A stretch of 48,243 nucleotides of DNA from the sequence record PZ150741.1, one strand, 5' to 3'. Position 1 is the stretch's first letter. Each line of letters begins with the position of its first letter. A model generated the notes under the pieces. The model made no database searches. It worked only from the letters and a program-made list of their open reading frames with translations, and had not been told where the DNA came from. The DNA is from a phage. Shown here one piece after another: positions 1-45,117 of the stretch. Both the position numbers and the translations under genes were made by a program.

Positions 1-35
1 GGAGATGCAACAATACAAACACCAATAAAATTTAC

Positions 36-64
36 TTGCACACTAAGATAGAATATGCTACTAT
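36..64 (+). promoter_or_regulatory. sigma70-like promoter (TTGCAC-17 bp-TACTAT)
   Basis: -35 TTGCAC at 36-41, 17-bp spacer, -10 TACTAT at 59-64; followed by conserved leader AACGAGAGGAGAGG and ATG at 95. Confidence 0.6.
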
Positions 65-94
65 TCATTTACACAAACGAGAGGAGAGGCAGAT

Positions 95-244
95 ATGGTT
101 ACTTTGATGGTTATGGAGTTCGAAAACAGCACCGCAACTTACCGCGAGATGACTATGGCGCAGGCGTATCACCTGGCCTCAAACGGCAACTTCTACAAGG
201 CCCAAATCATCAACGAGTTCGGGGTAATTGACTATGAATTTTAA
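95..244 (+). CDS. hypothetical small protein (49 aa)
   Basis: ATG at 95 preceded by GAGGAGAGG Shine-Dalgarno; stop overlaps next start (ATGA); below the 60-aa ORF-track cutoff. Confidence 0.45.
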   Translation: MVTLMVMEFENSTATYREMTMAQAYHLASNGNFYKAQIINEFGVIDYEF

Positions 245-506
245 CAGTTACACCGTTACCGTTGATTTTGAGGGGCTGGAGCTGCCCCTCCCTAACAACT
301 ACCGGTATATCTCACGCGACTGTAACGGGTTTATTCAGGGGTGGCGGAACAAACCGACAGATACTGAGTTCGGGATGTCTGGCGGGGAAGAGTTGCCGAT
401 CACTTTCGGACATCAGAGTAGCAACGAAGAACTTAAAACCGTGATTCGTAAGTATCGCCGCCGCGGTAACACCGGACTTATAGCAATAACAGGCGCGGTT
501 GAATAA
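234..506 (+). CDS. hypothetical protein (90 aa)
   Basis: Track ORF 228-506; first ATG at 234 with GGGG upstream. Confidence 0.5.
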   Translation: MNFNSYTVTVDFEGLELPLPNNYRYISRDCNGFIQGWRNKPTDTEFGMSGGEELPITFGHQSSNEELKTVIRKYRRRGNTGLIAITGAVE

Positions 507-525
507 ACGAGAGGAGAGACAGAAG

Positions 526-744
526 ATGTTCCTGGAATGCAAATCCTATGAAGGCTATTGGGCGCTGACCAAAAACGACCTGTACCACCTCAAAGAAGAC
601 GGCGACGAGAGCCGCTGCTACATAATAGACGACAATGGCACTGAACTTGATGTCTATTACACCGGGTATGGTCGATGGGCGTTATTGGCGGACGATGACT
701 TTGTGTTCGAAGAATATAACGGAGAGGAGCCAGAAGATGAGTAA
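526..744 (+). CDS. hypothetical protein (72 aa)
   Basis: Track ORF 499-744; ATG at 526 preceded by AACGAGAGGAGAGACAGAAG leader/SD. Confidence 0.5.
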   Translation: MFLECKSYEGYWALTKNDLYHLKEDGDESRCYIIDDNGTELDVYYTGYGRWALLADDDFVFEEYNGEEPEDE

Positions 745-1339
745 CAAAAACGAAGTATTAGAATACCTGATTGACCAGCTACGGCAGCAGCTACCGGTAG
801 TAGATGTAATGGGTGAAATAAAACGGTGGAGCATAGACCGTAGTATTGCTGGCCGAGGTAACTATACCGAAGAGGAAAACGCCGTAATCGATGCTTACAT
901 CGGCCTGGAGCACAACCCATACAAGCAACAGTGCGAAGACCTGGCACATGAGGTGCAGTCACTCAAGAATCAGTTACGCGACGCTTCGGCGCTGGTGGCT
1001 GAGTTACAGAGCGACAACATTAAGAAATCTGAGCACATATCGCACCTGTCGGAACTGGTGGACGAGTTGATGGGGACTATAACGTTAATGAACGGGGACG
1101 TTGAGGCTTACAAAGTTCTACGCAAAGGTGGGTACGTGCCTGAGCAATCCGGTTGCCGTAAGGACGATACCCAGGAATGCGAGCATGAGTGGCGATGTGT
1201 GGTAGTTTTTGGGAATAGACTTGGGACCCCGTATTGCCGTAAATGTGGTGCGGCTAAACCTGAAGAATGCAAGCACGAATGGCAATTTTACGGAGTCGGG
1301 TTTCCTTGTATGTGCCTTAAATGCGGGTTAAAGAAATGA
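738..1339 (+). CDS. hypothetical protein, coiled-coil N-terminus and tandem Cys-rich zinc-ribbon-like C-terminus
   Basis: Track ORF 635-1339; ATG at 738 after GGAGAGGAG SD; C-terminus has two repeats of ECxHEW...CxKCG. Confidence 0.5.
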
Positions 1340-1539
1340 CCAGCATCCTTTTTATCTGGGTACTGTCTGCAGGTCAGATGCATCTGGCGGCATCAGAAAC
1401 GTTTTACTCGATGGAGGCGTGCCGGTCAGCGGCACGCGCCGCAGAGAACGCACACTTCCTGTTTCAGGGCGACAAGCCCAACGATTCAGAGGTACGCGCT
1501 ATCTGCTCACCTAAGCGACTTGGTAAACAGGAGAAGTGA
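1336..1539 (+). CDS. hypothetical small protein with hydrophobic signal-peptide-like N-terminus
   Basis: Track ORF 1321-1539; ATG at 1336 overlaps upstream stop (ATGA); N-terminus MTSILFIWVLSAGQMHLAAS. Confidence 0.4.
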   Translation: MTSILFIWVLSAGQMHLAASETFYSMEACRSAARAAENAHFLFQGDKPNDSEVRAICSPKRLGKQEK

Positions 1540-1541
1540 TT

Positions 1542-1790
1542 ATGGTTAAATTATACGCAGAGCGCGATTTAGAAATGCTCGACATGACTAACAATTACTA
1601 TTCAAGACATGTGATGGCTATGACGGAGGAAGGATTGAACAGTAAATCATCTATCGCTGCTGAGTTGGCGTACCGTGACTGGATTATTGATGAACAGCAA
1701 AAAGAGTTACAGAAATACAAAGACCAGTTCCCGGATTACGTCGAGTGCGCGAACTGTGGGTTGGTCACACATGTGGAAGGGGTAGAGTGA
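1542..1790 (+). CDS. hypothetical protein (82 aa)
   Basis: Track ORF 1536-1790; ATG at 1542 after AGGAGAAG. Confidence 0.45.
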   Translation: MVKLYAERDLEMLDMTNNYYSRHVMAMTEEGLNSKSSIAAELAYRDWIIDEQQKELQKYKDQFPDYVECANCGLVTHVEGVE

Positions 1791-1792
1791 TT

Positions 1793-2011
1793 ATGATATT
1801 CAGAGACCGTAGCAGCTTAAGAACACCGGATTGTCCTACGTTCGAGTTCGAAGACAAAGACGGAGATGTATGCTGTATTCAATTTTATAGAGACGATGAA
1901 GGTGAGTGCGGGCTTGTAGAGTTGCAGGTTTACAGTGAAACCGGTTGTGTTGTATTAAGTGCAGATGATGCGGAATCACTAGCTCGTAAGATACTTGAGG
2001 GCGTTAAATGA
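1793..2011 (+). CDS. hypothetical protein (72 aa)
   Basis: Track ORF 1745-2011; ATG at 1793 after GAAGGGG, follows upstream stop. Confidence 0.45.
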   Translation: MIFRDRSSLRTPDCPTFEFEDKDGDVCCIQFYRDDEGECGLVELQVYSETGCVVLSADDAESLARKILEGVK

Positions 2012-2301
2012 GCCTCGCAACTGACATCCTGAAACGAAGCGGCCTTGCGCCGCTGTCACCGAGAGCGAACACCCAAATATACAAGCGCCGCCGTAATGCG
2101 CTGTACCCCGAGATTCAGGCCAGACGCAAAGCTATCCGCGCCTGTGGATTCCAGAACGGGAAGGCCGTGAATCTCGGTGAGTTTAAAACACAGGAACGCG
2201 CAGCAATCGCTAACCGGTTATTTAATTACTGGAAATCGCTGGGGTACGATGATATTCCGACGAAACCACAGAGACGACAATACATCTGGAGACACAAATA
2301 A
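2008..2301 (+). CDS. hypothetical basic protein (97 aa)
   Basis: Track ORF; start overlaps upstream stop; Arg/Lys-rich. Confidence 0.45.
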   Translation: MSLATDILKRSGLAPLSPRANTQIYKRRRNALYPEIQARRKAIRACGFQNGKAVNLGEFKTQERAAIANRLFNYWKSLGYDDIPTKPQRRQYIWRHK

Positions 2302-2376
2302 ACAACTATTAGGATAATTCCTACCCGTGGTATCCTCCAGTTACTGCATACTTAATACGCACCTGGAGGATTCATC

Positions 2377-2685
2377 TTGGATAAATTTACTGAAACAGTG
2401 ACAGGCTGGCTTCTAGCTGCCGCGCTCGCCGGAGGGGTAATCGGACTACGACAACATAAGTCCGTTATTTCTGGCCCCACCGACGGCTTCTGCTTTATTG
2501 CTACTGGCTTCACTTGCGCCGTATTTGGTGCACCTCTTGCCGCTCAATGGTTCGGAATCACGGGCGACCGTGAAATCGCCGGGTTGGGCTTCATTATCGC
2601 TGTTCTCTGGATGCCTATCTATTCCCGTCTATCCAGTATCGTAGCCGGGGAATACATCGCACGTCGAGGAGGCACAGATGAATGA
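2377..2685 (+). CDS. holin-like membrane protein (about 3 TM segments)
   Basis: TTG start after GGAGGA; three hydrophobic segments; directly upstream of second membrane protein and endolysin. Confidence 0.45.
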   Translation: MDKFTETVTGWLLAAALAGGVIGLRQHKSVISGPTDGFCFIATGFTCAVFGAPLAAQWFGITGDREIAGLGFIIAVLWMPIYSRLSSIVAGEYIARRGGTDE

Positions 2686-2950
2686 GTTATTCTGGTTCGG
2701 CGGTATGCTGGCAATCGGGGGCACATCGCTGTTTAATGTGTACCACCCCAGCGTGGACGATGGGTTATTTGGTAGGGTGCTCTATATCCTGACAGCTATC
2801 GTCTGCGCCGCCGGATGTATCCACTTGCTACAGGGCAGCATGTCCCCGACGCTGCCTGAGACGTTAATCACATTAGTTGCGCTGCGCCAGATTCGCCAGG
2901 CGTGGTTGTCATACGGAGGACATAAGCGTGTCTCGAAATATTTCAGATAA
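2678..2950 (+). CDS. holin/antiholin-like membrane protein (2 TM segments)
   Basis: Two hydrophobic helices; overlaps both neighbours in the lysis cassette. Confidence 0.45.
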   Translation: MNELFWFGGMLAIGGTSLFNVYHPSVDDGLFGRVLYILTAIVCAAGCIHLLQGSMSPTLPETLITLVALRQIRQAWLSYGGHKRVSKYFR

Positions 2951-3416
2951 TGGGTTGCATTTTACCGCTGCGTTCGAGGGATTCCGCGGAACTGCGTATC
3001 GTGCTACGCCGAACGAGAAGTACCTGACTATAGGCTATGGAAGCTACGGTCCGCATGTTAAGGCGGGGCAAACCATCACGCCTGGTCAGGGCTTACTATT
3101 ACTTAATCGCGATATGGCTAAAGCCGTAGTTGCGGTTGATGCGGCGGCGCACCACTCATTGACACAGGCGCAGTTCGATGCAGTGTGCGACCTGGTGTAT
3201 AACGCGGGTGCCGGAGTGATTGCGGCTACTACTGGCACAGGTAAGGCACTGCGTTCTGGCGATATTGCGACACTGCGGGCTAAGCTGGCGCTGTTCATCA
3301 ACCAGAACGGCAAACCGTTACTTGGCTTACGTCGTCGCGTAGCTGGTCGCCTGGCGCTGTTCGACGGTAAACCGTGGCAGGAGGCGGAGGCTATTGGACG
3401 TGCGGTGAAAGGTTGA
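2928..3416 (+). CDS. endolysin, GH24 lysozyme (T4/P22 lysozyme-like)
   Basis: GTG at 2928 after GGAGGA; motifs ISDNG, FEGF...YLTIGYG, QFDAVCDLVYNAG, RRRVAGRLALF resemble P22 gp19/T4 e lysozymes. Confidence 0.85.
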   Translation: MSRNISDNGLHFTAAFEGFRGTAYRATPNEKYLTIGYGSYGPHVKAGQTITPGQGLLLLNRDMAKAVVAVDAAAHHSLTQAQFDAVCDLVYNAGAGVIAATTGTGKALRSGDIATLRAKLALFINQNGKPLLGLRRRVAGRLALFDGKPWQEAEAIGRAVKG

Positions 3417-3480
3417 CACATAAGACTAATCCGACGATACTTAAATCACCTCCTGCTCCATCCCTCTGCTCTCCAGTTTT

Positions 3481-3512
3481 ATCCCGGCCCTGACCCAGCC
3501 GGGATTTTTTTT
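3481..3512 (+). terminator. rho-independent terminator after lysis cassette
   Basis: Hairpin ATCCCGGC-CCTGACCCA-GCCGGGAT followed by T8 run. Confidence 0.8.
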
Positions 3513-3534
3513 ATCTATTTTCTGTAATGAATAG

Positions 3535-3563
3535 TTGACTATTACTCTGACCCCAATTATATT
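3535..3563 (+). promoter_or_regulatory. sigma70-like promoter (TTGACT-17 bp-TATATT)
   Basis: Immediately downstream of terminator; followed by AACGAGAACGGAG leader and ATG at 3598. Confidence 0.55.
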
Positions 3564-3597
3564 TACTTCATCGACAACGAGAACGGAGTAGAGAGAA

Positions 3598-3846
3598 ATG
3601 GGCAACGTATCGACGATAGAAATAACCGAAGAACTCGAAGATAAATGCATCGCATGGACTATGGATAATGACCCGGTTGCTATGTGTAAATTTCCAATGA
3701 AAATCACAGATACCGAAGCATTCAAAGACGCACAACTGATGGCACGCATCGCCGTTAGTAACCTGAGCAATAGCATTCCAGCGGACGCGTTCTGGTTCGC
3801 CGCAATGCAGACACTGAAAGCAGCTTATGCAGGAGAGAAGAAATGA
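3598..3846 (+). CDS. hypothetical protein (82 aa)
   Basis: Track ORF; strong SD GGAGTAGAGAGAA. Confidence 0.5.
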   Translation: MGNVSTIEITEELEDKCIAWTMDNDPVAMCKFPMKITDTEAFKDAQLMARIAVSNLSNSIPADAFWFAAMQTLKAAYAGEKK

Positions 3847-4046
3847 ACAACGTCACCGTTGGCGGCATTTATAAGAGTCGTCACTCTTGGAATGAGGGTG
3901 CAAGATTCATTGTAACCGCGGTTGGGTTGGACCACGTGCTTATCGCGGACCACCCATTGATAAAATTCAATGAATCCTATTTGGAATATTGTGTTGGTAG
4001 AAAGGAGTTCGAGACTAAATTTAAGTTTGCAGGAGAGAAGAAATGA
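3843..4046 (+). CDS. hypothetical protein (67 aa)
   Basis: Track ORF; ATGA overlap; SD AGGAGAGAAG. Confidence 0.5.
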   Translation: MNNVTVGGIYKSRHSWNEGARFIVTAVGLDHVLIADHPLIKFNESYLEYCVGRKEFETKFKFAGEKK

Positions 4047-4201
4047 GTGAACAAGGTCAAGTAAGCCAGCCACTACGAGTAGGCCGTAAAGTCAGTCGCA
4101 CCCCGTTCCCGACACGCGAGGAACTGATGAAACGTAACAGTTTCCCGGGGCCGGACAAGAACAAGTATCTCAATCGTATGTGGGGAGAGCGTAAAGAATG
4201 A
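4043..4201 (+). CDS. hypothetical small protein (52 aa)
   Basis: ATG at 4043 after AGGAGAGAAG; ATGA overlap with next gene; below track cutoff. Confidence 0.4.
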   Translation: MSEQGQVSQPLRVGRKVSRTPFPTREELMKRNSFPGPDKNKYLNRMWGERKE

Positions 4202-4368
4202 AAAAGTTAATTGCAGATGTTGAACTCGGTGATGTTATTCGTATTGATGACGACTACGGCGGCTACGACGTAGTGGTGAAGCACATCGAGTGGGATTCTA
4301 CGTTGCCATTTGTCACGATTAACCGTGAAATAATGTTCACTAAAACTGATTGGGTAGAGGTTCGATAA
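4198..4368 (+). CDS. hypothetical small protein (56 aa)
   Basis: ATG at 4198 after GGGGAGAG; below track cutoff. Confidence 0.4.
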   Translation: MKKLIADVELGDVIRIDDDYGGYDVVVKHIEWDSTLPFVTINREIMFTKTDWVEVR

Positions 4369-4541
4369 TGACTAACAACGAATACGAGAAACTTAGCGTA
4401 GAAGCGGCGACCGGTGAATCTGAAATAGCGTGGATTGACGCCAACATCGAGCACTACCTACGGCAAGTAGACATCCTTATGGAACGCCGCCGTGAACTGA
4501 TTAACCGCTTCAACCTGAACAAAGGTGACGCCAATGCCTAA
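4368..4541 (+). CDS. hypothetical protein (57 aa)
   Basis: Track ORF 4350-4541; ATG at 4368 overlaps upstream TAA. Confidence 0.45.
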   Translation: MTNNEYEKLSVEAATGESEIAWIDANIEHYLRQVDILMERRRELINRFNLNKGDANA

Positions 4542-4719
4542 AATCACAATTGCATCACTAGAGCGCCGTATTCTGGTGCTCGAGTCAGAGAAACAGACGT
4601 TAGGCGGTCAACTGTCGATTAACGGCGAGTTTCAACTGGAGGCGTTTAAGATGCTACTTGAACGCATGAAGGACGAGGAAGATTGGGCGCATTCCTTGCA
4701 AGACCTCTGGCAATACTAA
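4534..4719 (+). CDS. hypothetical coiled-coil protein (61 aa)
   Basis: Track ORF 4525-4719; ATG at 4534 after AAAGGTGA. Confidence 0.45.
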   Translation: MPKITIASLERRILVLESEKQTLGGQLSINGEFQLEAFKMLLERMKDEEDWAHSLQDLWQY

Positions 4720-10837: not shown

Positions 10838-10863
10838 AAATACCTCCTGTTTAAGTTGGCTGA

Positions 10864-10892
10864 ATAGTACCCTATTATGTTGGGGTGCGCAA
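10864..10892 (-). promoter_or_regulatory. sigma70-like promoter (TTGCGC-17 bp-TACTAT) for 10613-10837
   Basis: Reverse complement reads TTGCGCACCCCAACATAATAGGGTACTAT; near-identical to promoters at 19711 and 42572. Confidence 0.65.
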
Positions 10893-10958
10893 ACTATTTA
10901 TTTACCCATTCCAGTTATTACACCAAAGTGTAAATGATGGAATAAACTATTCGAATAG

Positions 10959-10987
10959 TTGACTTTTCACTAAAAATGTGCTAAGCT
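10959..10987 (+). promoter_or_regulatory. possible promoter (TTGACT-17 bp-TAAGCT)
   Basis: Good -35, weaker -10; at the head of a 316-bp non-coding stretch. Confidence 0.3.
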
Positions 10988-29360: not shown

Positions 29361-29872
29361 CTGGTAAATTTCCTCGCAAGATACGTTATTTCTTCTTTAC
29401 AAAGCTCATCAAGGTCGTTAGATACAAATCCTCTGGTGAATGTTTTGCTGAACTTTAATCCAGCTTTATCATTGTCCCCAGCGCACACCCAGTCATACGG
29501 CAAAAGTGACATTTGCTGCCGTAGGTCTGTTGGTATATTTGACCCAAGTGCGCTTACGGCATTGAACCCGCAATTCATCAAAGCAACAGCTTTAAATATG
29601 CTTTCGGTGACAAATACCACCCCGCTACTTGGCAGATACTCAAGTCCCCATAAACACGGCCTTGTTGTTCGGGTAAAGTACCGCGCGTCTTTAGGGTTTT
29701 TACAGTTCTTTTCCGCATGTGGCTTGTAATGCTGGTATCCTCGTAGCCTACCGTCAAAGCCCCACAAGTAGAATGTAGCGACGCCAGGGGCTAAGACTAC
29801 ACGTAAACGGTCTGCGTCAAAACCTCGTGACAGCAGATGCGCCTTAAGTAGAAACTCCTCACCGTCAGTCAT
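29357..29872 (-). CDS. Toprim-domain protein (primase/topoisomerase-like catalytic core)
   Basis: VFVTESIF Glu motif and CAGDNDKAG DxD motif at Toprim-typical spacing. Confidence 0.5.
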   Translation of the reverse strand: MTDGEEFLLKAHLLSRGFDADRLRVVLAPGVATFYLWGFDGRLRGYQHYKPHAEKNCKNPKDARYFTRTTRPCLWGLEYLPSSGVVFVTESIFKAVALMNCGFNAVSALGSNIPTDLRQQMSLLPYDWVCAGDNDKAGLKFSKTFTRGFVSNDLDELCKEEITYLARKFTR

Positions 29873-31293
29873 TTCTTACCTCGTCTCTTCATGTAATTAA
29901 GCAACTCTTCCTGTACCGATTTCTTCTCGTCTGTACGCGCGGCGACAACCTCGTCCAGCGTGTCTTTAGCCACGATGTGGTAGAGAAACACCGGGCGCTC
30001 GTGGCCCGCCTGTTTCTGGCGAACGGGGCCGATGCGCTCAACGACCTGCAAATAGTGCTCAAGGTTCCAGCCTTGCGAGATAAACGCCAGATGATGGCCG
30101 CCGTCCTGTAAATTCAAACCATGACCGGCTGACGCAGGGTGAACGCACAAAATCTCGATTTCACCACGGTTCCACGCTTCCATCTGCTTATTACCCTTAG
30201 CGCCTTTGGCAAACGCCTGCGCCTGTGGGAATCGCTTAAGGATGCGCTCAAGTTCGTGCTTGAACTGATAGGCCACCAGTAACGGTGCACCCTGTAGCTC
30301 CTCAACAATCGACTCCAGCGCATCCAGTTTCGTGTCGTGAACTTTCTCCCAGTCTTTGGTCGCTTCTCCGTCTGGCCCTGACACATACACGGCACCGGAC
30401 GCAATCTGCAGGCACTTCGACGTCTTCGCCGCAGCGTTAGCCGCTTCGACTTCCCCGCTCTCCAGTTCCGCGAATAACTTCTCCTCCATATCGATGTACG
30501 CCTGACGCGCTTTCTTCGGCAGGTCGATTTCAACCGGCACAATAATCGGCGCTTCGCAACCGAACCACTCTGCGGCGTCAATCGTAAGACTAATGTCCTT
30601 CATCTTCTGGTGAATTTCATTATCTGCGCCTGGGCGTGCATGATATTCACGCGCCATAGCTGACTTACCTTTCTGGACAGAGTTAAACCAGCGGTCGGTG
30701 AATGCCGTATATGAAGAACCGAGGCGCTCGCCTGCGTCAATAAACCAGTTCTGACCCCACAGGTCTTTGAGGCCGTTTGGTGATGGTGTGCCTGTCAGGT
30801 TAATGAACCGCTTAACCTTTCCGAACGCCACTTTGCTGAGCGCCTTAGCCCGCTTGCTACCCCCTGAACGGCTACGGAATGATTTTAGCTTCGTACTCTC
30901 GTCGGCGACGATAACCGTAAAAGGCCAGTCGTCTTTGCCGTAGTAGTCAATCAGCCACTCGATAACTTCGTAGTTAGTGCACACCACGTTAGCGTCTGAC
31001 TCCAGCGCCGCAATACGGCGTTTCTCCGAACCCGTTGCATCGACGACACGCAGGCACGGGAAACCCCACTTAGTTTGTTCTGCAGGCCACGTACCGGACG
31101 CAACACGTAACGGGGCGAGGATTAACACGCGGTCCTCTTCCGTAAGCTGACCGTTGCGGAACAGGCGGTTTAATGTCCACAGTACGCTGCCAGTCTTCCC
31201 GGCACCCATGCTCGCCCATATGTTGCAGCGATGGTGTTGCAACATGAACGAAGTCATGAGCTTCTGATATTCGCGCCTTTGAAACTTACCCAT
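29869..31293 (-). CDS. SNF2/DEAD-like superfamily 2 helicase
   Basis: Walker A MGAGKTGS, DExx box VADEST, C-terminal HPASAGHGLNLQ helicase motif VI-like. Confidence 0.8.
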   Translation of the reverse strand: MGKFQRREYQKLMTSFMLQHHRCNIWASMGAGKTGSVLWTLNRLFRNGQLTEEDRVLILAPLRVASGTWPAEQTKWGFPCLRVVDATGSEKRRIAALESDANVVCTNYEVIEWLIDYYGKDDWPFTVIVADESTKLKSFRSRSGGSKRAKALSKVAFGKVKRFINLTGTPSPNGLKDLWGQNWFIDAGERLGSSYTAFTDRWFNSVQKGKSAMAREYHARPGADNEIHQKMKDISLTIDAAEWFGCEAPIIVPVEIDLPKKARQAYIDMEEKLFAELESGEVEAANAAAKTSKCLQIASGAVYVSGPDGEATKDWEKVHDTKLDALESIVEELQGAPLLVAYQFKHELERILKRFPQAQAFAKGAKGNKQMEAWNRGEIEILCVHPASAGHGLNLQDGGHHLAFISQGWNLEHYLQVVERIGPVRQKQAGHERPVFLYHIVAKDTLDEVVAARTDEKKSVQEELLNYMKRRGKK

Positions 31294-32203
31294 TTACCAC
31301 CCCCATGAACGCCTTTATAAATTCAGCGGCTACTTGCGGGACGATGGCATTGCCGTAACCGCGCAATCGTCCCACTCTGGCGGGTATCCCATTAGCCAGC
31401 GGGAATGTGCCGGGTTCAACTGGCCGGAATTTCCCATCCCGGCAGCCGAGCCAGTCAGCATCTGACCAGAAGCCGTGATACGAATTGGTTGCGTTATCGC
31501 CGCCGCTTGTGCCACGTCTTGAGGTCCACCCTTCCTCTGAATCTCTGATAGCGCCCCCTCTAGTGTTCTCACGTTCTTTTCCCCGTCCGCACTGCGAGGA
31601 GTAGGCCAATTCGCTTTCCACACTTCCCGCCCCAACAGGCTGTTGGTAGGCACATTCAGGCATTCCTTCCCGTCTTTGTGGTCGCGCGTTGTTGGCGTCG
31701 GCCAATTCGTGCGCACCAAAGAAGAGTCGTTCTCTTTTGTGCGGAGCGCCGACGCTACAAGCTGGGAGTACGGCAAACCCGACGGCGTAGTCTTCTCCTT
31801 CCAGGTGAGCTTGTAAATCGCACATCCACGATTTTGCAATTGCTGGTGCAACCTGTTCCCCAAAGAGGACTGGAGGGCGGCACTCGCTGATGAGGTCGAG
31901 GAAAACTGGCGCGAGGTGTCTCGGGTCGAACTGCCCGAGTTGTTTTCCCGCCGCGCTAAACGGTTGGCAAGGCGGGCTTCCCGTCCAGAGAGGCGTATCT
32001 TCCGAAACTCCCGCAAGTCTGAGCGCGAGAGGCCAGCCGCCGATACCAGCGAAAAAATGACACTGGGTGAATCCGTCAAGGTCTTCTGGTCTAATTTCGG
32101 TAATGCTTCTTTCATCTACAACTCCAAAAGGTATATGACCCTGTTTTATTAGTTCGCGCAGCCACGCGGCTGCGCCTTTATCCCATTCGTTGTAATAGTT
32201 CAT
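31286..32203 (-). CDS. DNA (cytosine-5)-methyltransferase, compact
   Basis: Motif I FFAGIGGW, motif IV PPCQPFSAAG, ENV-like FGEQV, motif X YGNAIVPQVA. Confidence 0.75.
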   Translation of the reverse strand: MNYYNEWDKGAAAWLRELIKQGHIPFGVVDERSITEIRPEDLDGFTQCHFFAGIGGWPLALRLAGVSEDTPLWTGSPPCQPFSAAGKQLGQFDPRHLAPVFLDLISECRPPVLFGEQVAPAIAKSWMCDLQAHLEGEDYAVGFAVLPACSVGAPHKRERLFFGAHELADANNARPQRREGMPECAYQQPVGAGSVESELAYSSQCGRGKERENTRGGAIRDSEEGWTSRRGTSGGDNATNSYHGFWSDADWLGCRDGKFRPVEPGTFPLANGIPARVGRLRGYGNAIVPQVAAEFIKAFMGVVNG

Positions 32204-32729: not shown

Positions 32730-33014
32730 TTAACTATAATAGTTAGCTATTATGTCGTCAACCTGTTTAAACGAACCAACGACAAAAACATTCGCGCCAC
32801 GTTTACGCATCCGCTCATGTTCACGTAACTGGTGCGGGTCTGGCTTCGTGTTTTCATCTTTCTTAACCTCGACAAACCAGACGATGCCGTCGGGGAGGAT
32901 TACCAGCAGGTCGGGAGCGCCGGAGCGCCCCTCGTAGGAGAGTTTGCGAACGAGGCCCCCCAGGGCCTCGAATCGCTCTTTTGCGTATTTCTGTATTTTG
33001 CCTTCCGGGGTCAT
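32730..33014 (-). CDS. VRR-NUC domain nuclease (PD-(D/E)XK)
   Basis: Track ORF 32730-33029; motif PDLLVILPDG...FVEVKK; start probably ATG 33014. Confidence 0.6.
   Translation of the reverse strand: MTPEGKIQKYAKERFEALGGLVRKLSYEGRSGAPDLLVILPDGIVWFVEVKKDENTKPDPHQLREHERMRKRGANVFVVGSFKQVDDIIANYYS
32733..32761 (-). promoter_or_regulatory. sigma70-like promoter (TTGACG-17 bp-TATAGT)
   Basis: Reverse complement TTGACGACATAATAGCTAACTATTATAGT; member of leftward early promoter family. Confidence 0.65.
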
Positions 33015-33245: not shown

Positions 33246-33377
33246 TCATTCCAGCACCCACAGATAAATTGCGATGAACATGCCCAATATGGCAACCATC
33301 ATGCCGTATTGACCCTCGTGACAGTAGACACCGGCGGCGAATCCTGCCAGTACCGCGATAATCAGTTTACTTGGCAT
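33246..33377 (-). CDS. possible 43-aa membrane peptide
   Basis: ATG at 33377 overlaps 3' end of polymerase gene; hydrophobic. Confidence 0.2.
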   Translation of the reverse strand: MPSKLIIAVLAGFAAGVYCHEGQYGMMVAILGMFIAIYLWVLE

Positions 33378-35670
33378 AACGCTTCATCTCCGCACCTTCC
33401 GCTACAAGAGGGAACCCTTCGGCCCATTCCGGTAATTCGCACATCAACCGCCCAAGCTCTGCAACATTGTATTCCGGTGTATCTGGTGTCTCGCAGATAA
33501 TTTCGTCGTGTACGTGAAGCACAATCGGATAGCCGTTAGCTTCTACATTCAGCAGCGCATTAGCCAGCAAATCACGGCACAGCGCCTGAGTGCAGTTTTC
33601 CACCAGTTTACCGGAGTAGGTGTACTGGAAGCCCCACTGACGGGTTAACTGGTTTTCTCCCTGGTACTTGATACGCACGTTAGTAGACACCTTTCCGTCT
33701 TCGTCTGTCTCTTTCGACACGCTTAACCCGACTCCGGGGTATGACATAACACGACCCGACGGCAACGTCATGCGCAGCCACCAGCCAGCGACTTTGTTGC
33801 CGTTGGTGTCTGTCTCCACGTTGCGCGAAAACTTAACGCCGCGTGGCCCTGCGGTGAACTCTTTACCTGGATTGCGGATAGCTGCCATAGCCGCATCTTC
33901 AATATCTCGCCAGAACGCTACTGTTTCAGGGTGGGACTCACGCCACATGCGCTTGATAGCGTCGCAGGTACGCCACACTTTCTTATCAAGAATATACGAT
34001 GGCCGGTCATCCTTTTCACCCGGACGCGGTGGTCGCTTTGCCTCCTGAATACGCGCCCACTCATACCCACGTGCTGTAGCAGCCCAGATGTGGTCGGGGA
34101 AAGTCCCATCCATTGTTTTTGCCATATCAACAAGGTTTAAGCCGAGGTTTTTAGCAAACTGAACGAAAGCGCCAACGCCGCCTGCGTAGCCGAGGCCAAG
34201 TTCGCAGGCTTTACCAATCTGGCGCAGGTCACTACGGCTTTCGAGAATGTAATCAGGGTCCATGCCGAACATCTTACCCGCGGTTACGCAGTAAATATCC
34301 AATCCCGCACGGAACGTATCGAGCGCGGTTTCTTCTCCCGCCAGCCATGCCAAACCGCGACCTTCAACGTTAGAGTAATCAGCTACGACAAACTTATGCC
34401 CGGCTTCCGGTATGATGCAGCTACGCACCGTCGATGCCGTTAGCTTGGCTACATCGAAACGGCGGTGTGCTCGGCCTTTAAACAACAGGTCGATTCCGTA
34501 GGACAACGGGTGTGTTACTCTCCACCAGTCCTTCTCCGACATCCAGTCATAACGTACTTTCTTCTTTTTATTCTTAGGGTCGTCGTGATAATACCCGCGC
34601 GCCAGGTTCTGCGGCTGAAAGCCTTTACCCGCAAACCGTAACGTACGCTTAGCCCCGCCATACTGGATACAACCGCGACGGCGGTCGTCCGACGAACGGC
34701 CCAACAGAAGCGGGTTATATTTCGTTGACGCGGTGGACGCGGCCCCGAGGCGCATTTCGATAATCATACGAGCGTCGTCCGGTAAATCATCATCCGCAAG
34801 CAGGTCATTCAGAGTCGACTTCTGCGCATTGTGGATGCGGTGCGCTGGCGCAAGTTCACGTAGAATCGGCAGAAAGTCTTTACCAGTAAGCGAGCCGCCG
34901 TACTTACGCTGGGCTTCTTCCTGTAACTGCGCCTTGTGTTTCTCTACCGCTTCAATCGCTGCTTCTGCAAGCGCGACGTCAACCTTAAACCCGCGGTCGT
35001 TAATTAACTGGTCCAGCTCCAGTACACGGTCTTCGAACTCAGAGTTACCCCAACGCGGCAGCTTATGGAAGACTTCACGCATTGCGGTGATGTCGCTCAC
35101 AGCGTACTTGATGAATAGTGCCCACTCGTCAGGGTGCGTTTCGGCGGTGTAGCGTCTGATTTTGTAGTTCTTCGGTGTCGGTTTAGAGAAACGCTTAATC
35201 AGTGCCTTTCCGCGTTTATCTTTCGCGTTGTCTGCAGACACGCCCAGCACTTCACACAACGCATCGAGTGACCCAGGCAGCGCGTGACGAAACGCCCAAA
35301 TCATCGTATCAATGGTGTTGCTTACCGGAATATCAAAACCCCAGCAGTGCTTCATGATTAACCTATCGAACATTGAGCCGTTGTGCCACACCATCTTAAC
35401 GCGGCTGTTTGGCTTAACCAGGCGGCGCAAGGCGCGGTGTAAATCCCCCGGCATGTCGCTGCCGTCGGTGCAATCCCATATCTGTACCGGCTCGTCGTCA
35501 AAAGCATAAGTACAGATGAGCACTTCGGTGGTTGGGTGCTCCGCGTAAGCGTATGAGCCGACTTTCTTCAAATCGGCTTCGGAGAATGTTTCAAAGTCCA
35601 GGTATAAGTAGCTCATTTCTTTTTCCTTAAATCCAGTGCCTTTGTTTCGCTTAATCTTATTTTCATACAA
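33367..35670 (-). CDS. family A DNA polymerase with 3'-5' exonuclease domain
   Basis: Exo I YLDFET; motif A ADYSNVEGR; motif B RQIGKACELGLGYAGG; motif C HVHDE; alternative start ATG 35616. Confidence 0.9.
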   Translation of the reverse strand: MYENKIKRNKGTGFKEKEMSYLYLDFETFSEADLKKVGSYAYAEHPTTEVLICTYAFDDEPVQIWDCTDGSDMPGDLHRALRRLVKPNSRVKMVWHNGSMFDRLIMKHCWGFDIPVSNTIDTMIWAFRHALPGSLDALCEVLGVSADNAKDKRGKALIKRFSKPTPKNYKIRRYTAETHPDEWALFIKYAVSDITAMREVFHKLPRWGNSEFEDRVLELDQLINDRGFKVDVALAEAAIEAVEKHKAQLQEEAQRKYGGSLTGKDFLPILRELAPAHRIHNAQKSTLNDLLADDDLPDDARMIIEMRLGAASTASTKYNPLLLGRSSDDRRRGCIQYGGAKRTLRFAGKGFQPQNLARGYYHDDPKNKKKKVRYDWMSEKDWWRVTHPLSYGIDLLFKGRAHRRFDVAKLTASTVRSCIIPEAGHKFVVADYSNVEGRGLAWLAGEETALDTFRAGLDIYCVTAGKMFGMDPDYILESRSDLRQIGKACELGLGYAGGVGAFVQFAKNLGLNLVDMAKTMDGTFPDHIWAATARGYEWARIQEAKRPPRPGEKDDRPSYILDKKVWRTCDAIKRMWRESHPETVAFWRDIEDAAMAAIRNPGKEFTAGPRGVKFSRNVETDTNGNKVAGWWLRMTLPSGRVMSYPGVGLSVSKETDEDGKVSTNVRIKYQGENQLTRQWGFQYTYSGKLVENCTQALCRDLLANALLNVEANGYPIVLHVHDEIICETPDTPEYNVAELGRLMCELPEWAEGFPLVAEGAEMKRYAK

Positions 35671-35827: not shown

Positions 35828-36457
35828 TTAACGGCGGCGACGTTCGCGGCGCGGTGCTTCATCTTCTTCGTCGTCTTCCAGGTCGTCAGTGCTCGCCACT
35901 ACACTGGAGCCTCCGAAGCGTTTACCTTCACCCATATACTTGATGCCGAGGATGGTAGCGCACAGGTTTTTCCAATCTTTGTGCCACCATAACTCTACAG
36001 ATACGTTTGCGACACATCCGCTATATACCTGCTCACCTTCTATTTCCTTCCCATCGATGTTGAAATCAGGCTCGGTTTGTTTTTCGCCTTTAGCCGATGT
36101 CATAATCACCGGTTGACGGTTGTTAGTAGCGCGGAAATACAGACCTTCTTCAAAATCATCAATCGGATTATCTCGCATCGCCAGGTCACGGACACAGCAT
36201 TTATCTGCATGGTGGTCTACGCCGTAGTTGGCCTTCATCCATTTCTCGGCAGCAGCTGCCCCGATTGCCTCCGTTACAACTTCCATCGCGGTATCGTAAA
36301 GCGCATCGATTTGAGGGTGGTCAGGCTGCATAAGAACCGTAACCTGATATTTACCCTTAATCAGTTTACCAGTTTTCTTGTCCTCAGAGTCGGCAGCACG
36401 TTCGAATACGTTAACCCAGGCAGTGTTTACTTTACGCAGATTCAGTTTAATACCCAT
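35828..36457 (-). CDS. ssDNA-binding-like protein (DUF2815-like) with acidic C-terminal tail
   Basis: 209 aa; C-terminus DDLEDDEEDE; co-located with DUF2800-like nuclease and polymerase. Confidence 0.5.
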   Translation of the reverse strand: MGIKLNLRKVNTAWVNVFERAADSEDKKTGKLIKGKYQVTVLMQPDHPQIDALYDTAMEVVTEAIGAAAAEKWMKANYGVDHHADKCCVRDLAMRDNPIDDFEEGLYFRATNNRQPVIMTSAKGEKQTEPDFNIDGKEIEGEQVYSGCVANVSVELWWHKDWKNLCATILGIKYMGEGKRFGGSSVVASTDDLEDDEEDEAPRRERRRR

Positions 36458-36523: not shown

Positions 36524-36552
36524 ACTATAATAGCTTACTATTCAGGTGTCAA
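36524..36552 (-). promoter_or_regulatory. sigma70 consensus promoter (TTGACA-17 bp-TATAGT)
   Basis: Reverse complement TTGACACCTGAATAGTAAGCTATTATAGT; palindrome CCGGGCAGTTCCCGG in the leader. Confidence 0.7.
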
Positions 36553-36556: not shown

Positions 36557-37831
36557 TTATTCCAAATCTTCTTCACTAACCCGATTCCATTCAGGACGCT
36601 TGTCGTCTGCCGTCGCGACACATGGTGAACCGGGCTTACGCGTAATGAAGTCTTTTAGTTCTTCTTCCGGTATTACTTTAACGGCCTCGGTAGGCGTCAT
36701 GAGCACGTCTTTAGTCAGCTTGTAACCATATTTCTCGTATACCGCCTCGGCATCCTTCCACGCACGATTACCCGGGCGACCTTCAACCAGCTTGTACCCA
36801 GGAACTTTCTTACCGGAATGCAACGCGGTGGCCATCGCTTTCTCGACCTTGTCGATGTGCTGGCGCAACAACGGCAGCTTCTCATACTCGACTACGAGTT
36901 GCTCCGGCGTCAGTTCCAGCGCAAAGTCATCTTCAAGTTCTTCCGCCAGTACAGAATTAACGGTTCTTGTACGCGCGGCGCACTGTTCTGAGAACCGACA
37001 CCACTGACAACCATCGACAGACGGCTTGAAGTCCGTCGCTTTCAGGTTCTTTTTACCACGGAAATAAGCATCAAGCGCTAACAGCGCGCGTTTCTGTGCG
37101 AACTTAGCAAACAGTTCCAGACCTTCGACCGAGATGTCCCATTCCGACGCACCGCCCGCGTACGGCTGGAAGATGACCAGACGAACAACCGTGATGTTAT
37201 AACGTCTCTTGAGTCGGCGATAAACACCGAGAGCGTAAAGCATAAGCTGCTTGTTTTCTTTCGCTTCGACACGATGTCGTCCTGTTTTCAGGTCGCCAAT
37301 AATTAGCATGTGCTCGTCAGTGTTAGCCAGTTCCTGAACGGCAACAAGGTCAGCGGTCCCGAAGGTCTCTAAATCGTCTTCCTCACCTTCTTCACCATCA
37401 GCAGGTACTTTGTAGCCCGGATGCAACACCTCAGTAAGATTGACACGCATCTCGAGTTTGGCGTAAGTCGCTACATCGATAATCGGTTTGCAGTAGCCGG
37501 TGTACTTGCGCACCTGCTCAATCATGTCAGCCGTAATCAGTACCGCACCTTTCATCGGGCTGATTAGCGCCTTAATCTGGCCTTTACCCTCGTCCAGCAC
37601 GTAAGCACCAACTTCGCGCTCTAACGGCAACGCAGTGCCTTTGATGTACTGGTTAAGGTGCATCTCAGCTATGGTGTGCATTGCCGTGCCTAATACAGCG
37701 GCTTTACCGGACGTGTTAGGAATATCTTTTTCACAGGCCAGTGATGCGGCGCAGCTTAGCCACTTTTTAGCCCCCGATGGTGACAGTAAGGCGTGCACAT
37801 CATTATTTCCGCCGCGTTCTTTTAGAATCAT
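36557..37831 (-). CDS. Cas4-like PD-(D/E)XK exonuclease (DUF2800-like)
   Basis: N-terminal HALLSPSGAKKWLSC motif; C-terminal Cys cluster CQWCRFSEQC. Confidence 0.6.
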   Translation of the reverse strand: MILKERGGNNDVHALLSPSGAKKWLSCAASLACEKDIPNTSGKAAVLGTAMHTIAEMHLNQYIKGTALPLEREVGAYVLDEGKGQIKALISPMKGAVLITADMIEQVRKYTGYCKPIIDVATYAKLEMRVNLTEVLHPGYKVPADGEEGEEDDLETFGTADLVAVQELANTDEHMLIIGDLKTGRHRVEAKENKQLMLYALGVYRRLKRRYNITVVRLVIFQPYAGGASEWDISVEGLELFAKFAQKRALLALDAYFRGKKNLKATDFKPSVDGCQWCRFSEQCAARTRTVNSVLAEELEDDFALELTPEQLVVEYEKLPLLRQHIDKVEKAMATALHSGKKVPGYKLVEGRPGNRAWKDAEAVYEKYGYKLTKDVLMTPTEAVKVIPEEELKDFITRKPGSPCVATADDKRPEWNRVSEEDLE

Positions 37832-38621: not shown

Positions 38622-39083
38622 TTATTCTTCTTCGAAATACTTGTTCTTGATTGCCGTCAGGCGTTCCAGGTATTCAGCCAGGTCTTCATCTTTAATCGCA
38701 GCAATCTTCATCTTCTTACCGGTGAACTCTTCCAGCAGCTCGTCAGAATCATCACACGCGGCATCGCTCGGACCTTCATTAATCGCATCGTCGATAGCCT
38801 GAATCTGGTCGCGCAGAGACTGGTAATCTACTTCTTCTTTCTCTTCTTCCGGCTCTGGTGTAGGTTCCTCTACTTTAGCTTTACGCGGCTTGCGTTTTGG
38901 CTTCTCTTCTTCTGCTGGTTTAGTGTCAACTATGTCTTCACCTTCGGCCGGGATTTCTTTCGTTGCAACAGTAGGCTCGATTGTTGCAGTTTCCGCAACG
39001 ACAACCTGTTTTGCACTGTTCGCGGCAATCAGTTCATGTGCAACTACGAAACGTTCCAGTAACACCAAGAATTTCTCTAACAT
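38622..39083 (-). CDS. highly acidic Glu/Asp-rich protein, first gene of a leftward early operon
   Basis: 153 aa with roughly 45 Asp+Glu versus about 20 Lys+Arg; immediately downstream of consensus promoter. Confidence 0.55.
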   Translation of the reverse strand: MLEKFLVLLERFVVAHELIAANSAKQVVVAETATIEPTVATKEIPAEGEDIVDTKPAEEEKPKRKPRKAKVEEPTPEPEEEKEEVDYQSLRDQIQAIDDAINEGPSDAACDDSDELLEEFTGKKMKIAAIKDEDLAEYLERLTAIKNKYFEEE

Positions 39084-39114: not shown

Positions 39115-39143
39115 ACTATAATAGCGAACTATTCACATGTCAA
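39115..39143 (-). promoter_or_regulatory. sigma70 consensus promoter (TTGACA-17 bp-TATAGT)
   Basis: Reverse complement TTGACATGTGAATAGTTCGCTATTATAGT. Confidence 0.7.
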
Positions 39144-39165
39144 TGGGCTTTTCTAAAATAATTAA

Positions 39166-39176
39166 TATGGTACTAT
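39166..39176 (+). promoter_or_regulatory. possible extended -10 promoter (TGGTACTAT) for HTH gene
   Basis: TG-n-TACTAT about 30 nt upstream of ATG 39208; no clear -35. Confidence 0.3.
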
Positions 39177-39207
39177 TCACATATCAACTGACTAAGGAGT
39201 AACTGAC

Positions 39208-39423
39208 ATGCAACCATCTGAACTAGGCATCCGTGTAGAACAACGCCGCAAAGAACTCGGCATCTCCCAGCGCCGTCTGGCGGTCCTGGCCGGGGTTTCC
39301 CAGGGCGCAATTAACCAACTTGCACTTGGAGTAACTCAGGACGTCCGCCCGGCGACGCTGTTTAAACTGGCGGAAGTTCTGCAAGTAGACGCTAAGTGGC
39401 TGGCGTTCGGTGAAGGGGCTTAA
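39208..39423 (+). CDS. XRE/Cro-type HTH transcriptional regulator
   Basis: LGISQRRLAVLAGVSQGAINQL HTH signature; AAGGAG SD. Confidence 0.7.
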   Translation: MQPSELGIRVEQRRKELGISQRRLAVLAGVSQGAINQLALGVTQDVRPATLFKLAEVLQVDAKWLAFGEGA

Positions 39424-39440
39424 CGCCCCTTTCTTTTTAC

Positions 39441-41739: not shown

Positions 41740-41973
41740 TTATTCCAGGTCTTCTAAAGTAGCGGTCATTCCGCGAACTTCGGCAACGGCGCTATATTTC
41801 CCGCCAACGTTTTTCACGACACCGGATTTAACCAGAACACGTAACGACCCTTCAATAATGGCGGAACTATAGTACTTAAAATAACTACGGCGCAAGTCGA
41901 TAACACTGCACGACCCTTTTTTACGTGTTAACGAAACGACTGCTGTGAATACTCGTGACTGGAACTCGGTCAT
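41740..41973 (-). CDS. hypothetical protein (77 aa)
   Basis: Track ORF; ATGA-coupled to upstream HTH gene. Confidence 0.45.
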   Translation of the reverse strand: MTEFQSRVFTAVVSLTRKKGSCSVIDLRRSYFKYYSSAIIEGSLRVLVKSGVVKNVGGKYSAVAEVRGMTATLEDLE

Positions 41974-42140
41974 TTCACGTTCTCCTTAATCCACGCTTCC
42001 ACTTTCTCCGGGTCGAACGTACCTGGCTGCCGGCGGCCCATAATGCGAATACAACAATCCGGGAACTTTCCACTCTTTAACCAGTTATTCAGCGTGCGAC
42101 GGGTAACCCCGATACGCTCAGCTACCTCATTCTGCGTCAT
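41970..42140 (-). CDS. AlpA/excisionase-like HTH DNA-binding protein (56 aa)
   Basis: MTQNEVAERIGVTRRTLNNWLKSGKFP resembles AlpA-family HTH; first gene after leftward promoter; below track cutoff. Confidence 0.55.
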   Translation of the reverse strand: MTQNEVAERIGVTRRTLNNWLKSGKFPDCCIRIMGRRQPGTFDPEKVEAWIKENVK

Positions 42141-42172
42141 TCTCAAACCCTCATCATCAGTTAACGAAACAA

Positions 42173-42475: not shown

Positions 42476-42506
42476 ACCGGGCAGGCTTAAGGCCTGCCCT
42501 TTAGTT
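42476..42506 (+). terminator. terminator hairpin GGGCAGGC-TTAAG-GCCTGCCC plus TTTAGTT inside control region
   Basis: 8-bp perfect stem plus T-rich tail; no annotated upstream + strand gene. Confidence 0.5.
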
Positions 42507-42571
42507 ACCAAGTAATAAGAATAAAGGCACAACCTTCCCTAAAGAATCACAACGGCAACGTAACTATTCTC

Positions 42572-42600
42572 TTGCACACCCCAACATAATAGGATACTAT
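42572..42600 (+). promoter_or_regulatory. sigma70-like promoter (TTGCAC-17 bp-TACTAT)
   Basis: TTGCACACCCCAACATAATAGGATACTAT; followed by AACGAGACAGAGGAG leader and ATG 42635. Confidence 0.65.
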
Positions 42601-42634
42601 TCACTTATCGAAACGAGACAGAGGAGTGAGGGTT

Positions 42635-42820
42635 ATGTTTAAGAAGGGTCAGTTGGTGAAAACGAAAGATTACGGTTATTACGGTGTTATCGAACAAATT
42701 TCAAATGATGTTATCGGGATGTACTACATCTATATACCTGACGGGCGTTTCGGTAAGTGGTGCTTTGGCGATGAGATAACACTAATCGGCAACAATTTTA
42801 AATTCAAAGGGGCGAAGTGA
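42635..42820 (+). CDS. hypothetical small protein (61 aa)
   Basis: Track ORF 42626-42820; ATG at 42635 after GAGGAGTGAGGG. Confidence 0.5.
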   Translation: MFKKGQLVKTKDYGYYGVIEQISNDVIGMYYIYIPDGRFGKWCFGDEITLIGNNFKFKGAK

Positions 42821-43059
42821 TGCAAATCATAATTACAGATAACACAGTTTCCTACGAAAAAGGTGACGACGATACTTTGGAAAGCATAGGTGTAAATATA
42901 GGTGACGTTTTCGAGGTGCTTGGTCCTGTATCAGGCGGATGGTGGATTAAGGTTGGGCGCTACAAAGTTCCGGTAAGTAAAGCCGAAGCGGAAATACACA
43001 CAACGGCATCGAATCACGATGCTCGTGCCGACGACTCTGAGGGAGGTTGCCGTGAATAA
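42820..43059 (+). CDS. hypothetical protein (79 aa)
   Basis: Track ORF 42817-43059; ATG 42820 overlaps upstream stop. Confidence 0.45.
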   Translation: MQIIITDNTVSYEKGDDDTLESIGVNIGDVFEVLGPVSGGWWIKVGRYKVPVSKAEAEIHTTASNHDARADDSEGGCRE

Positions 43060-43119
43060 TTACCCGTTTATTTTAATCATCAGCGCCGTTTATGCGGTGC
43101 ACGCGTTGTGGGGGTTGTT

Positions 43120-43263: not shown

Positions 43264-43266
43264 GAT

Positions 43267-45115: not shown

Positions 45116-45117
45116 TT

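Follow-up and report, generated by a model that had tools for sequence, protein, structure and literature searches.

The phage sequence record PZ150741.1 was analysed as one window of 48,243 nt (a single strand, numbered from window position 1), in which the heptamer AACGAGA is probably the shared core of a short 5' leader found in four paralogous cassettes, each made up of a predicted sigma70 promoter, the leader, and a ribosome-binding site (RBS). The initial annotation had described such a leader for rightward early genes; the leader is indeed shared, and in Kagunavirus and Jerseyvirus genomes it has been conserved along with its promoter, but the restriction to rightward early genes is too narrow and unsupported, one copy lying on the minus strand. 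In the account that we propose, purifying selection would keep each block as one expression unit, comprising a strong promoter, its initial transcribed sequence, and a mostly U-poor leader for ribosome loading, and the block would drive any gene placed behind it. This is a known kind of phage regulatory module and involves no new mechanism.

Kagunavirus (Guernseyvirinae) coliphages aligned to the first 4 kb of the window at ~90% identity, and ~280 Salmonella Jersey-type phages gave weaker matches to the same region; the window is a Kagunavirus genome of ~43.6 kb. Positions 1-4670 recur at 43577-48243 on the plus strand with 99.9% identity, three indel bases apart, and this second copy is a circular wrap or terminal redundancy. 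Therefore the unique genome measures ~43,576 bp, and each feature of the first 4.67 kb is present twice.

Distribution of AACGAGA

AACGAGA followed by a purine-rich Shine-Dalgarno (SD) sequence had been noted before the ATGs at 95, 526, 3598 and 42635, and all four leaders were found there (Table 1). A fifth leader copy, absent from the initial annotation, lies on the minus strand at 39102-39096 with its ATG at 39083, and the distance from motif to ATG was 12-16 nt at all five sites. Over the whole window AACGAGA occurred 13 times against 5.8 expected, a raw count that is inflated because 4.67 kb is duplicated (43652, 44082, 46586 and 47149 duplicate 76, 506, 3012 and 3576); the whole-window count was for this reason dropped as evidence of enrichment. 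The unique count of nine (six plus strand, three minus) is by itself unremarkable. Four of these nine copies fall within coding sequence (3012 and 9663 on the plus strand, 11316 and 14920 on the minus strand), and the other five precede start codons. Among the 40-mers upstream of 65 genes, a set that rests on a rough gene call, five contained AACGAGA, compared with 0.30 expected from column shuffles and 0.44 from block shuffles that retained local composition. The heptamer was also the most shared upstream 7-mer, on a par with TACTATT from the -10 and with AGAGGAG and AGGAGAG from the SD. The AACGAGA signal is thus real, non-random and positional, and its frequency lies above that expected of AG-rich ribosome-binding regions, the comparison on which the initial annotation had let the motif stand or fall.

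Chance resemblance among such AG-rich regions therefore has practically no probability as an explanation. The 14-mer AAACGAGAGGAGAG does occur in many unrelated viral contigs, often before an ATG and with no associated promoter, and the unique genome count is little above expectation. This reading is nevertheless already refuted by the upstream enrichment and by the retention of the motif at orthologous sites in 43 related contigs, and it fails as well to account for a distance from -10 to motif that is fixed in four promoters.

Predicted promoters and leaders

Four of the five motif copies follow strong sigma70-type promoters with 17-nt spacers, and the motif begins 11-12 nt after the -10 hexamer; we refer to these promoters as P36 (class i), P42572 (class ii), P3535 (class iii) and P39143 (class iv). 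Promoters of the form TTGnCn-17-TAnnnT had been claimed for three of the first four sites, and these were recovered at 36-64, 3535-3563 and 42572-42600, with none ahead of the copy at 506. Transcription start sites, all inferred and none mapped, were taken by the usual rule as the A seven nt after the -10, which places AACGAGA at approximately +6 to +12 of predicted leaders 24-28 nt long. Each class has its own 11-12 nt ahead of the motif and its own sequence after it, and pairs have longer tracts in common: AAACGAGAGGAGAGA links class i to class iv, and ATCGA(C)AACGAGA links class ii to class iii. By sequence match only, the promoters agree with sigma70 sites at 10-11 of 12 positions (TTGACA/TTGCAC-17-TATAGT/TACTAT), with ~9-10 occurrences.

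Host sigma70 RNA polymerase would use all four cassettes, and no phage RNA polymerase was recognisable among the open reading frames (ORFs) scanned. The layout is common to all: near-consensus -35 and -10 hexamers and a 17-nt spacer holding or abutting the palindrome AATAG-N4-CTATT; then a pyrimidine-rich 6-nt discriminator, an A start, a C/A-rich stretch and AACGAGA; and finally a purine-rich SD, with the ATG 24-28 nt from the predicted start. The unit behind P39143 is leftward and continues into the genes for the exonuclease and replication; P3535 lies after the terminator of the lysis cassette and before small genes, terminase and portal. The only transcriptome found for a relative, that of vB_Eco_K1B4, has coarse time points and no start sites.

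The constant distance from the -10 and the existence of conserved blocks that end just after the motif suggest that the heptamer is part of the promoter's initial transcribed sequence, through which it may influence promoter escape. Published work shows that the initial transcribed sequence sets promoter output and indicates that a CG step such as the one conserved here at ~+8/+9 of the predicted transcripts would favour initial pausing and slower escape (PMC12464699, PMC5961368). Any effect of the initial transcribed sequence could therefore go in either direction.

Leader structure and ribosome binding

The SD was present at all five sites as GGAG or GAGGAG, 0-3 nt after the motif. In classes i and iv the SD duplex takes in the final GA of the motif and so becomes GAGGAG, while in classes ii and iii motif and SD are separate; the AACGA portion is presumably not complementary to the anti-SD, going by the known 3' end of 16S rRNA. 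A role as translation enhancer, one of two functions proposed in the initial annotation, is possible.

The other proposed function, an RNase processing site, was unsupported. The five leaders folded no better than shuffled sequences (z = +0.08 to +1.74), which rules out a hairpin-type processing or attenuator element, and an Rfam scan of the entire window returned nothing at gathering score. RNase E sites are AU-rich, the opposite of these U-poor leaders, in which classes i, iii and iv contain only 0-2 T in 24-28 nt. The leaders fit unstructured, purine-rich ribosome loading; neither the hairpin of an RNase III site nor the AU-rich character of an RNase E site suits them.

Conservation among related phages

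A motif search across related phages, as proposed in the initial annotation, showed conservation at orthologous sites in 43 contigs. We collected 51 loci from 43 distinct IMG/VR contigs, anchored on the helicase-primase and one other protein; the protein encoded at 635-1339 gave only nine loci as an anchor, because that gene is itself variable, and the helicase-primase search took its place. The relatives include SETP3-type Jerseyviruses with helicases 64-65% identical, SETP3 itself being one of the loci (L035). Promoters in these relatives were fetched by their hexamers alone, and the motif was not used. Among unique sequences the exact heptamer was present in 18 of 28 (class i), 25 of 31 (class ii), 26 of 33 (class iii) and 17 of 17 (class iv), the remainder being single-base variants.

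The fraction of sequences that carried the consensus base was 0.91-1.00 per column in the -35 and -10 hexamers (1.00 and 0.99, respectively, for P36), 0.91-0.97 in the gap between -10 and motif, and 0.92-1.00 in AACGAGA; it was 0.75-0.98 over the next 12 nt and 0.45-0.77 beyond the ATG. In the helicase-primase genes of the same genomes, codon position 3 scored 0.70 (all) or 0.81 (Kagunavirus-like), and positions 1 and 2 scored 0.90-0.97. Leader and promoter are thus as conserved as codon positions 1 and 2 and more conserved than position 3, and therefore the whole block is under purifying selection. Most Kagunavirus and SETP3-type Jerseyvirus contigs had one and the same class iii leader, without a difference between the predicted +1 and the ATG, with the spacer and discriminator diverged. 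Neither the leader motif nor palindrome promoters were found in FSL SP-031 of Cornellvirus, the third genus of the subfamily, and thus the system is lineage-specific.

Several observations weigh against assigning a function to the heptamer itself. Variants such as AGCGAGA, AACGGGA, AACAAGA and AACGATA, among others, occur in relatives, and within a class the seven bases are no more conserved than their flanks; therefore a specific role for them, apart from the whole leader, was not demonstrated. In some Jerseyvirus genomes the class iv leader is wholly replaced by TCTTATCACCAACTAAACAGGAG at the same promoter and before the same gene, so that the motif is dispensable. The genome also has five promoters of the same style that bear the palindrome and lack AACGAGA, with other short C/A-rich leaders (10892, 19739, 32761 and 36552 on the minus strand and 39164 on the plus strand, the last placed by its palindrome position), and such motif-less cassettes, P32761 for example, likewise head variable first genes. 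Finally, promoter activity, start sites and expression are predicted at all sites.

These points bear most directly on the possibility that the heptamer has no function of its own, and that paralogous cassettes (i with iv, ii with iii) have been kept alike by duplication, gene conversion or recombination of co-infecting relatives, with AACGAGA as a stretch that has not yet diverged. We consider this doubtful, although it would explain the longer tracts shared within each pair, the existence of hybrid cassettes and the equal conservation of motif and flanks within a class, and the absence of both motif and palindrome from FSL SP-031 fits an inherited, lineage-specific cassette. Between classes, however, the flanks have fully diverged, yet the heptamer keeps both its sequence and its position 11-12 nt from the -10. 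In addition, the transcribed leader is conserved far above synonymous sites, even across genera, and therefore some constraint acts on this RNA or on the initial transcribed region.

AACGAGA(GGAG) might be the site of a trans-acting factor on the mRNA, either a phage translational repressor or an endoribonuclease that acts on early leaders, which corresponds to the RNase processing site of the initial annotation; T4 RegB, for instance, cuts GGAG in early SD sequences. We judge this improbable. A lineage-specific heptamer common to four otherwise different leaders has the expected look of a binding site, and in classes i and iv GGAG directly follows the motif. In classes ii and iii, however, the base after the motif is C or A instead of the start of GGAG; no structure is available to present a site; relatives serve the same genes with motif-less leaders; and no candidate RNA-binding protein or RNase, including a RegB homologue, was found among the 27 ORFs scanned, the remaining ORFs being unscanned.

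Outside the family, an exact scan of IMG/VR with the 14-mer gave mostly scattered, ordinary RBS matches with no promoter and no sign that a cassette moves between phage families; a literature search for the literal sequence returned unrelated primers only. As a separate observation, in an unrelated group of ~66-74 kb phages two adjacent genes, 657 bp apart, share GGCTGAG-AAACGAGAGGAGAG-TGA...ATGGCA (L058 at 7122 and 7779, L105 at 165 and 822, L112 at 2906 and 3563), which looks like a tandem duplication of a paralogue together with its RBS.

Gene exchange behind the cassettes

The genes behind these constant leaders are highly variable. Class i leaders preceded ~17-19 different N-termini in 27 sequences, class iii leaders 13-16 in 29, and class iv leaders 7-10 in 16, whereas the first genes of class ii were of two real types. 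Similarity among relatives mostly stops at the ATG and in several cases directly after the motif. In class ii, one continuation reads AACGAGAC-AGAGGAGTGAGGGTT-ATG (MFKKG) and the other reads AACGAGAC-ATAAGGAATTTAGAA-ATG (MNKAT); the class ii joints have the form AACGAGAC|AGAGGAG... or AACGAGAC|ATAAGGAATT.... One locus (L013) has AACGGGA-TAAGGAATTTGAAG, and in three others (L029, L032 and L049) a class ii-like upstream half is joined to a class i downstream half.

The promoterless copy at 506 belongs to this pattern. A repeat search paired 75-93 with 505-523 (19 nt in direct orientation, 95% identity, spacing 430), and a two-gene module lies between the leader copies. The order P36, leader, MVTLM gene, second gene, second leader is common to the window and to L010, L011, L024 and L043, and the gene after the second leader begins MFLECK in the window and MSNKNE in the other four. 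In L001, L008 and L012, which lack the module, the gene after the second leader sits directly behind P36. A BLAST comparison of the window with L001 matched 19-93 to 19-93 and 507-1193 to 77-799, a difference of exactly one repeat-to-repeat unit, and therefore the copy at 506 is the second flank of a 430-bp two-gene module that was inserted or can be deleted. Judged from this comparison, it is not an independent internal translation signal.

The mosaic pattern points to recombination as its source. Joints would lie in the cassettes or at their 3' edge because the cassettes are the only conserved DNA in the hypervariable small-gene regions, and such joints would lead to replacement of genes directly after the ATG or directly after AACGAGA. 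Insertion of a module could likewise leave the leader in two copies, and the 430-bp module, with its flanks at 75-93 and 505-523, would be an example. Plausible recombination machinery is available in an exonuclease and a Gp2.5-like annealing protein, both encoded by the phage.

The spacer palindrome and candidate regulators

The palindrome AATAG-N4-CTATT is present in every strong sigma70-like promoter of the genome, with 16 matches at one mismatch or fewer against 1.1 expected. Its sites are 52-65 (AATATGCTACTATT, overlapping the -10 of P36), 3530-3543, 10863-10876, 19710-19723, 32738-32751, 36529-36542, 39120-39133, 39164-39177 and 42588-42601, and also 10954-10967, and its placement varies with promoter class: on the -35 hexamer in some, on the -10 in others, or in the spacer between them. 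It looks like an operator for a dimeric regulator. In a paper on the relative fBC-Eco01 the palindrome was reported as a PHIRE motif and ascribed to a phage RNA polymerase (PMC9825357); no such polymerase was recognised among the ORFs scanned, and the sites look like host sigma70 promoters.

Just to the left of the rightward small-gene region, a 58-aa protein with an HTH_17 domain (excisionase/AlpA/MerR-like) is encoded at 41970-42146 on the minus strand and is a candidate to bind the palindrome. It was the only helix-turn-helix (HTH) protein found nearby, some ORFs being unscanned, and the Pfam scan gave no match to an antiterminator family. In the record of one relative, the match to the adjacent region 42480-43576 covers an 'alpa family transcriptional regulator', which may or may not correspond to the 58-aa gene.

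A promoter spacer element together with an HTH protein also recalls the sigma70-dependent promoter-proximal pause elements at which Q- or AlpA-like antiterminators load. The pause element of lambda pR' is AACGAT at +1 to +6 (PMC4005639), and the element of P. aeruginosa PalpB is CACGAT, with an AlpA-binding element between -35 and -10; mutation of the last T of the -10-like element in PalpB abolished AlpA action (PMC9371919). AACGAG shares five of the six bases of the lambda element and lies in the initial transcribed region, the palindrome lies in or beside the spacer as a protein-binding-like element, and the 58-aa protein is encoded. We nevertheless rejected this reading, which seems scarcely credible, on three grounds. 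First, >90% of copies have G where the -10-like hexamer must end in T; in classes i and iv the motif region is free of T, and no other register there supplies both A2 and T6. Second, relative to its counterparts in lambda and PalpB the element is shifted downstream by 5-6 nt. Third, the HTH takes up residues 3-56 of the 58-aa protein, which leaves no N-terminal segment for a ring at the RNA exit channel, and no Q/AlpA-type protein architecture was found among the ORFs scanned. Furthermore, the palindrome changes position with class and occurs at promoters that lack AACGAGA, and the motif serves several promoters instead of one late promoter.

A broader version of this idea would make AACGAGA and the palindrome together the cis part of a global switch specific to the Kagunavirus/Jerseyvirus lineage, at which a phage factor, such as the 58-aa HTH_17 protein or an RNA-binding protein, would read the promoter and the first 12 nt, load on RNA polymerase or on the leader, and retime the four units, in the manner of Q/AlpA or RegA/RegB but with an atypical element that lacks the -10-like T. 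We regard such a switch as very improbable.

Comparison with known phage modules

The closest parallel to the cassettes is provided by the PeSL (promoter-early stem-loop) cassettes known from T4-type phages (Arbiol et al. 2010, PMC2839356; Comeau et al. 2014, PMC4122927). Both are repeated, strong sigma70-like promoter cassettes that end in the SD and start codon of the next gene, both are concentrated upstream of small uncharacterised genes or ORFans in plastic regions, and both bound indels and replacements between close relatives. A terminator-like hairpin also stands ahead of each of the three rightward cassettes, at a distance of 25-95 nt from P3535, P42572 and P36. They differ in that PeSL have a stable G/C-rich stem-loop terminator within or abutting the promoter, whereas here the palindrome is AT-rich (5+5 bp) and the terminators stand apart; in number, ~50 per T4-type genome versus ~9-10 in this 43.6-kb genome; and in the conserved transcribed leader, which is not a described feature of PeSL. 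No sequence relationship is expected. In T4-type phages, recombination between neighbouring PeSL also gives rise to mini-circles. By this analogy the cassettes most likely obey the same logic as PeSL, in which an expression cassette doubles as a recombination joint.

Two further systems share part of this arrangement. The early promoters of T5, PN25 among them, reportedly share a purine-rich stretch at the start of the transcript that influences how readily the polymerase escapes, in work attributed to Gentz and Bujard in 1985 and to Kammerer et al. in 1986. As in T5, several very strong host-polymerase promoters of one phage would share sequence past +1 into a GAGAGGAG-type RBS through a short leader; the sequence and the phage group are different. 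In lambdoid phages, boundary or linker sequences are said to occur at gene junctions, as Juhala et al. in 2000 and Clark et al. in 2001 are credited with describing. There, too, short conserved intergenic stretches coincide with mosaic joints between unrelated genes, whereas here the conserved stretch holds all the signals for expression, so that selection has an evident reason to keep it; the joints may simply lie where homology is available.

The cassettes provide a compact map of predicted transcription units in Kagunavirus and Jerseyvirus, phages that are widely used in biocontrol and therapy of Salmonella and E. coli, and they mark the positions at which predicted first-expressed small genes are swapped. 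By analogy with other phages, host takeover or anti-defence would be a likely task of these hypervariable first genes. From promoter to ATG, the constant block of 75-80 bp is also a predicted ready-made, strong expression signal and a natural homology arm for payload genes.

Genome features and additional observations

Gene identities were taken from PHROG and Pfam scans that covered 27 ORFs and are listed with the leader copies and predicted regulatory elements in Table 1.

Table 1. Coordinates of leader copies, predicted regulatory elements and genes in the window
Feature	Position	Strand	Details
Site 1	AACGAGA 76-82	+	GGAG 83-86; ATG 95
Site 2	AACGAGA 506-512	+	GGAG 513-516; ATG 526
Site 3	AACGAGA 3576-3582	+	GGAG 3585-3588; ATG 3598
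Site 4	AACGAGA 42612-42618	+	GAGGAG 42621-42626; ATG 42635
Predicted promoter P36 (class i)	36-64	+	TTGCAC 36-41, 17-nt spacer, TACTAT 59-64
Predicted 5' untranslated region (UTR) of P36	71-94	+	ACACAAACGAGAGGAGAGGCAGAT; first copy of leader direct repeat (75-93) inside
Predicted promoter P42572 (class ii)	42572-42600	+	TTGCAC-17-TACTAT; palindrome AATAGGATACTATT 42588-42601 over -10
Predicted 5' UTR of P42572	42607-42634	+	ATCGAAACGAGACAGAGGAGTGAGGGTT
Predicted promoter P3535 (class iii)	3535-3563	+	TTGACT-17-TATATT; palindrome AATAGTTGACTATT 3530-3543 over -35
Predicted 5' UTR of P3535	3570-3597	+	ATCGACAACGAGAACGGAGTAGAGAGAA
Predicted promoter P39143 (class iv)	39143-39115	-	TTGACA-17-TATAGT; palindrome 39120-39133 in spacer
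Predicted 5' UTR of P39143	39084-39108	-	ATACCAAACGAGAGGAGAGAAACAA; heads 153-aa gene 38622-39083 (phrog_3127)
Second leader copy, promoterless	505-525	+	AAACGAGAGGAGAGACAGAAG; upstream ORF stop TAA 504-506 overlaps AACGAGA; ATG 526
Two-gene module	95-506	+	49-aa ORF 95-244 (phrog_4653) and ORF 228/234-506 (phrog_1972), between leader copies
Terminator-like hairpin and T-run	3482-3512	+	After endolysin gene, directly before P3535; read from sequence by eye, unlisted by automatic scan
Terminator-like hairpin	42479-42499	+	Upstream of P42572
Holin and endolysin	~2678-3416		PHROG/Pfam
Terminase, portal, structural genes	from ~5686 rightward		PHROG/Pfam
DNA polymerase	33367-35670	-	PHROG/Pfam
Gp2.5-like annealing protein	35828-36457	-	PHROG/Pfam
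Exonuclease	36557-37831	-	PHROG/Pfam
Helicase-primase	39441-41681	-	PHROG/Pfam

The leftward replication block also codes for a protein with a C-5 cytosine DNA methylase domain and a SNF2-family helicase (31286-32203 and 29869-31293, minus strand). The two copies of the terminal region differ by a 2-bp indel inside the endolysin gene (2985-2986), copy 2 encoding an intact 154-aa endolysin (46526-46990) and copy 1 having another N-terminal frame, and by 1 bp in the T-run of the terminator (3505); these indels are probably assembly or sequencing errors or heterogeneity of the terminal repeat.

P39143 on the minus strand and the TACTAT-type promoter at ~39164 on the plus strand are divergent and back to back, with ~30 nt between them. 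The predicted rightward promoter serves a single 71-aa gene (39208-39423), at the end of which lies a terminator (39412-39432). On the minus strand, a longer leader of ~60 nt lies between P36552 (TTGACA-17-TATAGT) and the gene of the Gp2.5-like single-stranded DNA-binding/annealing protein (36552-36458). This leader contains a hairpin, CCGGGCAGTTCCCGG (~36512-36498), that is kept in Kagunavirus and Jerseyvirus contigs, and, close to the start codon, a AGCGAGAAAT element; the hairpin may act in attenuation or as an operator for autoregulation.

A direct repeat of CATTTACACAAGCG at 5192 has no promoter, lies inside coding sequence and was set aside as chance. Other repeats stand before genes: TGCAGGAGAGAAGAAATGA occurs at 3828-3846 and 4028-4046, 100% identical and 200 nt apart, before different small genes, and ATAAGGAATTGAGAAATG is present twice (minus-strand starts 32391 and 32699); some relatives have this last module joined straight onto the end of AACGAGAC. 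RBS modules of a standard type seem to be a general trait of these genomes.

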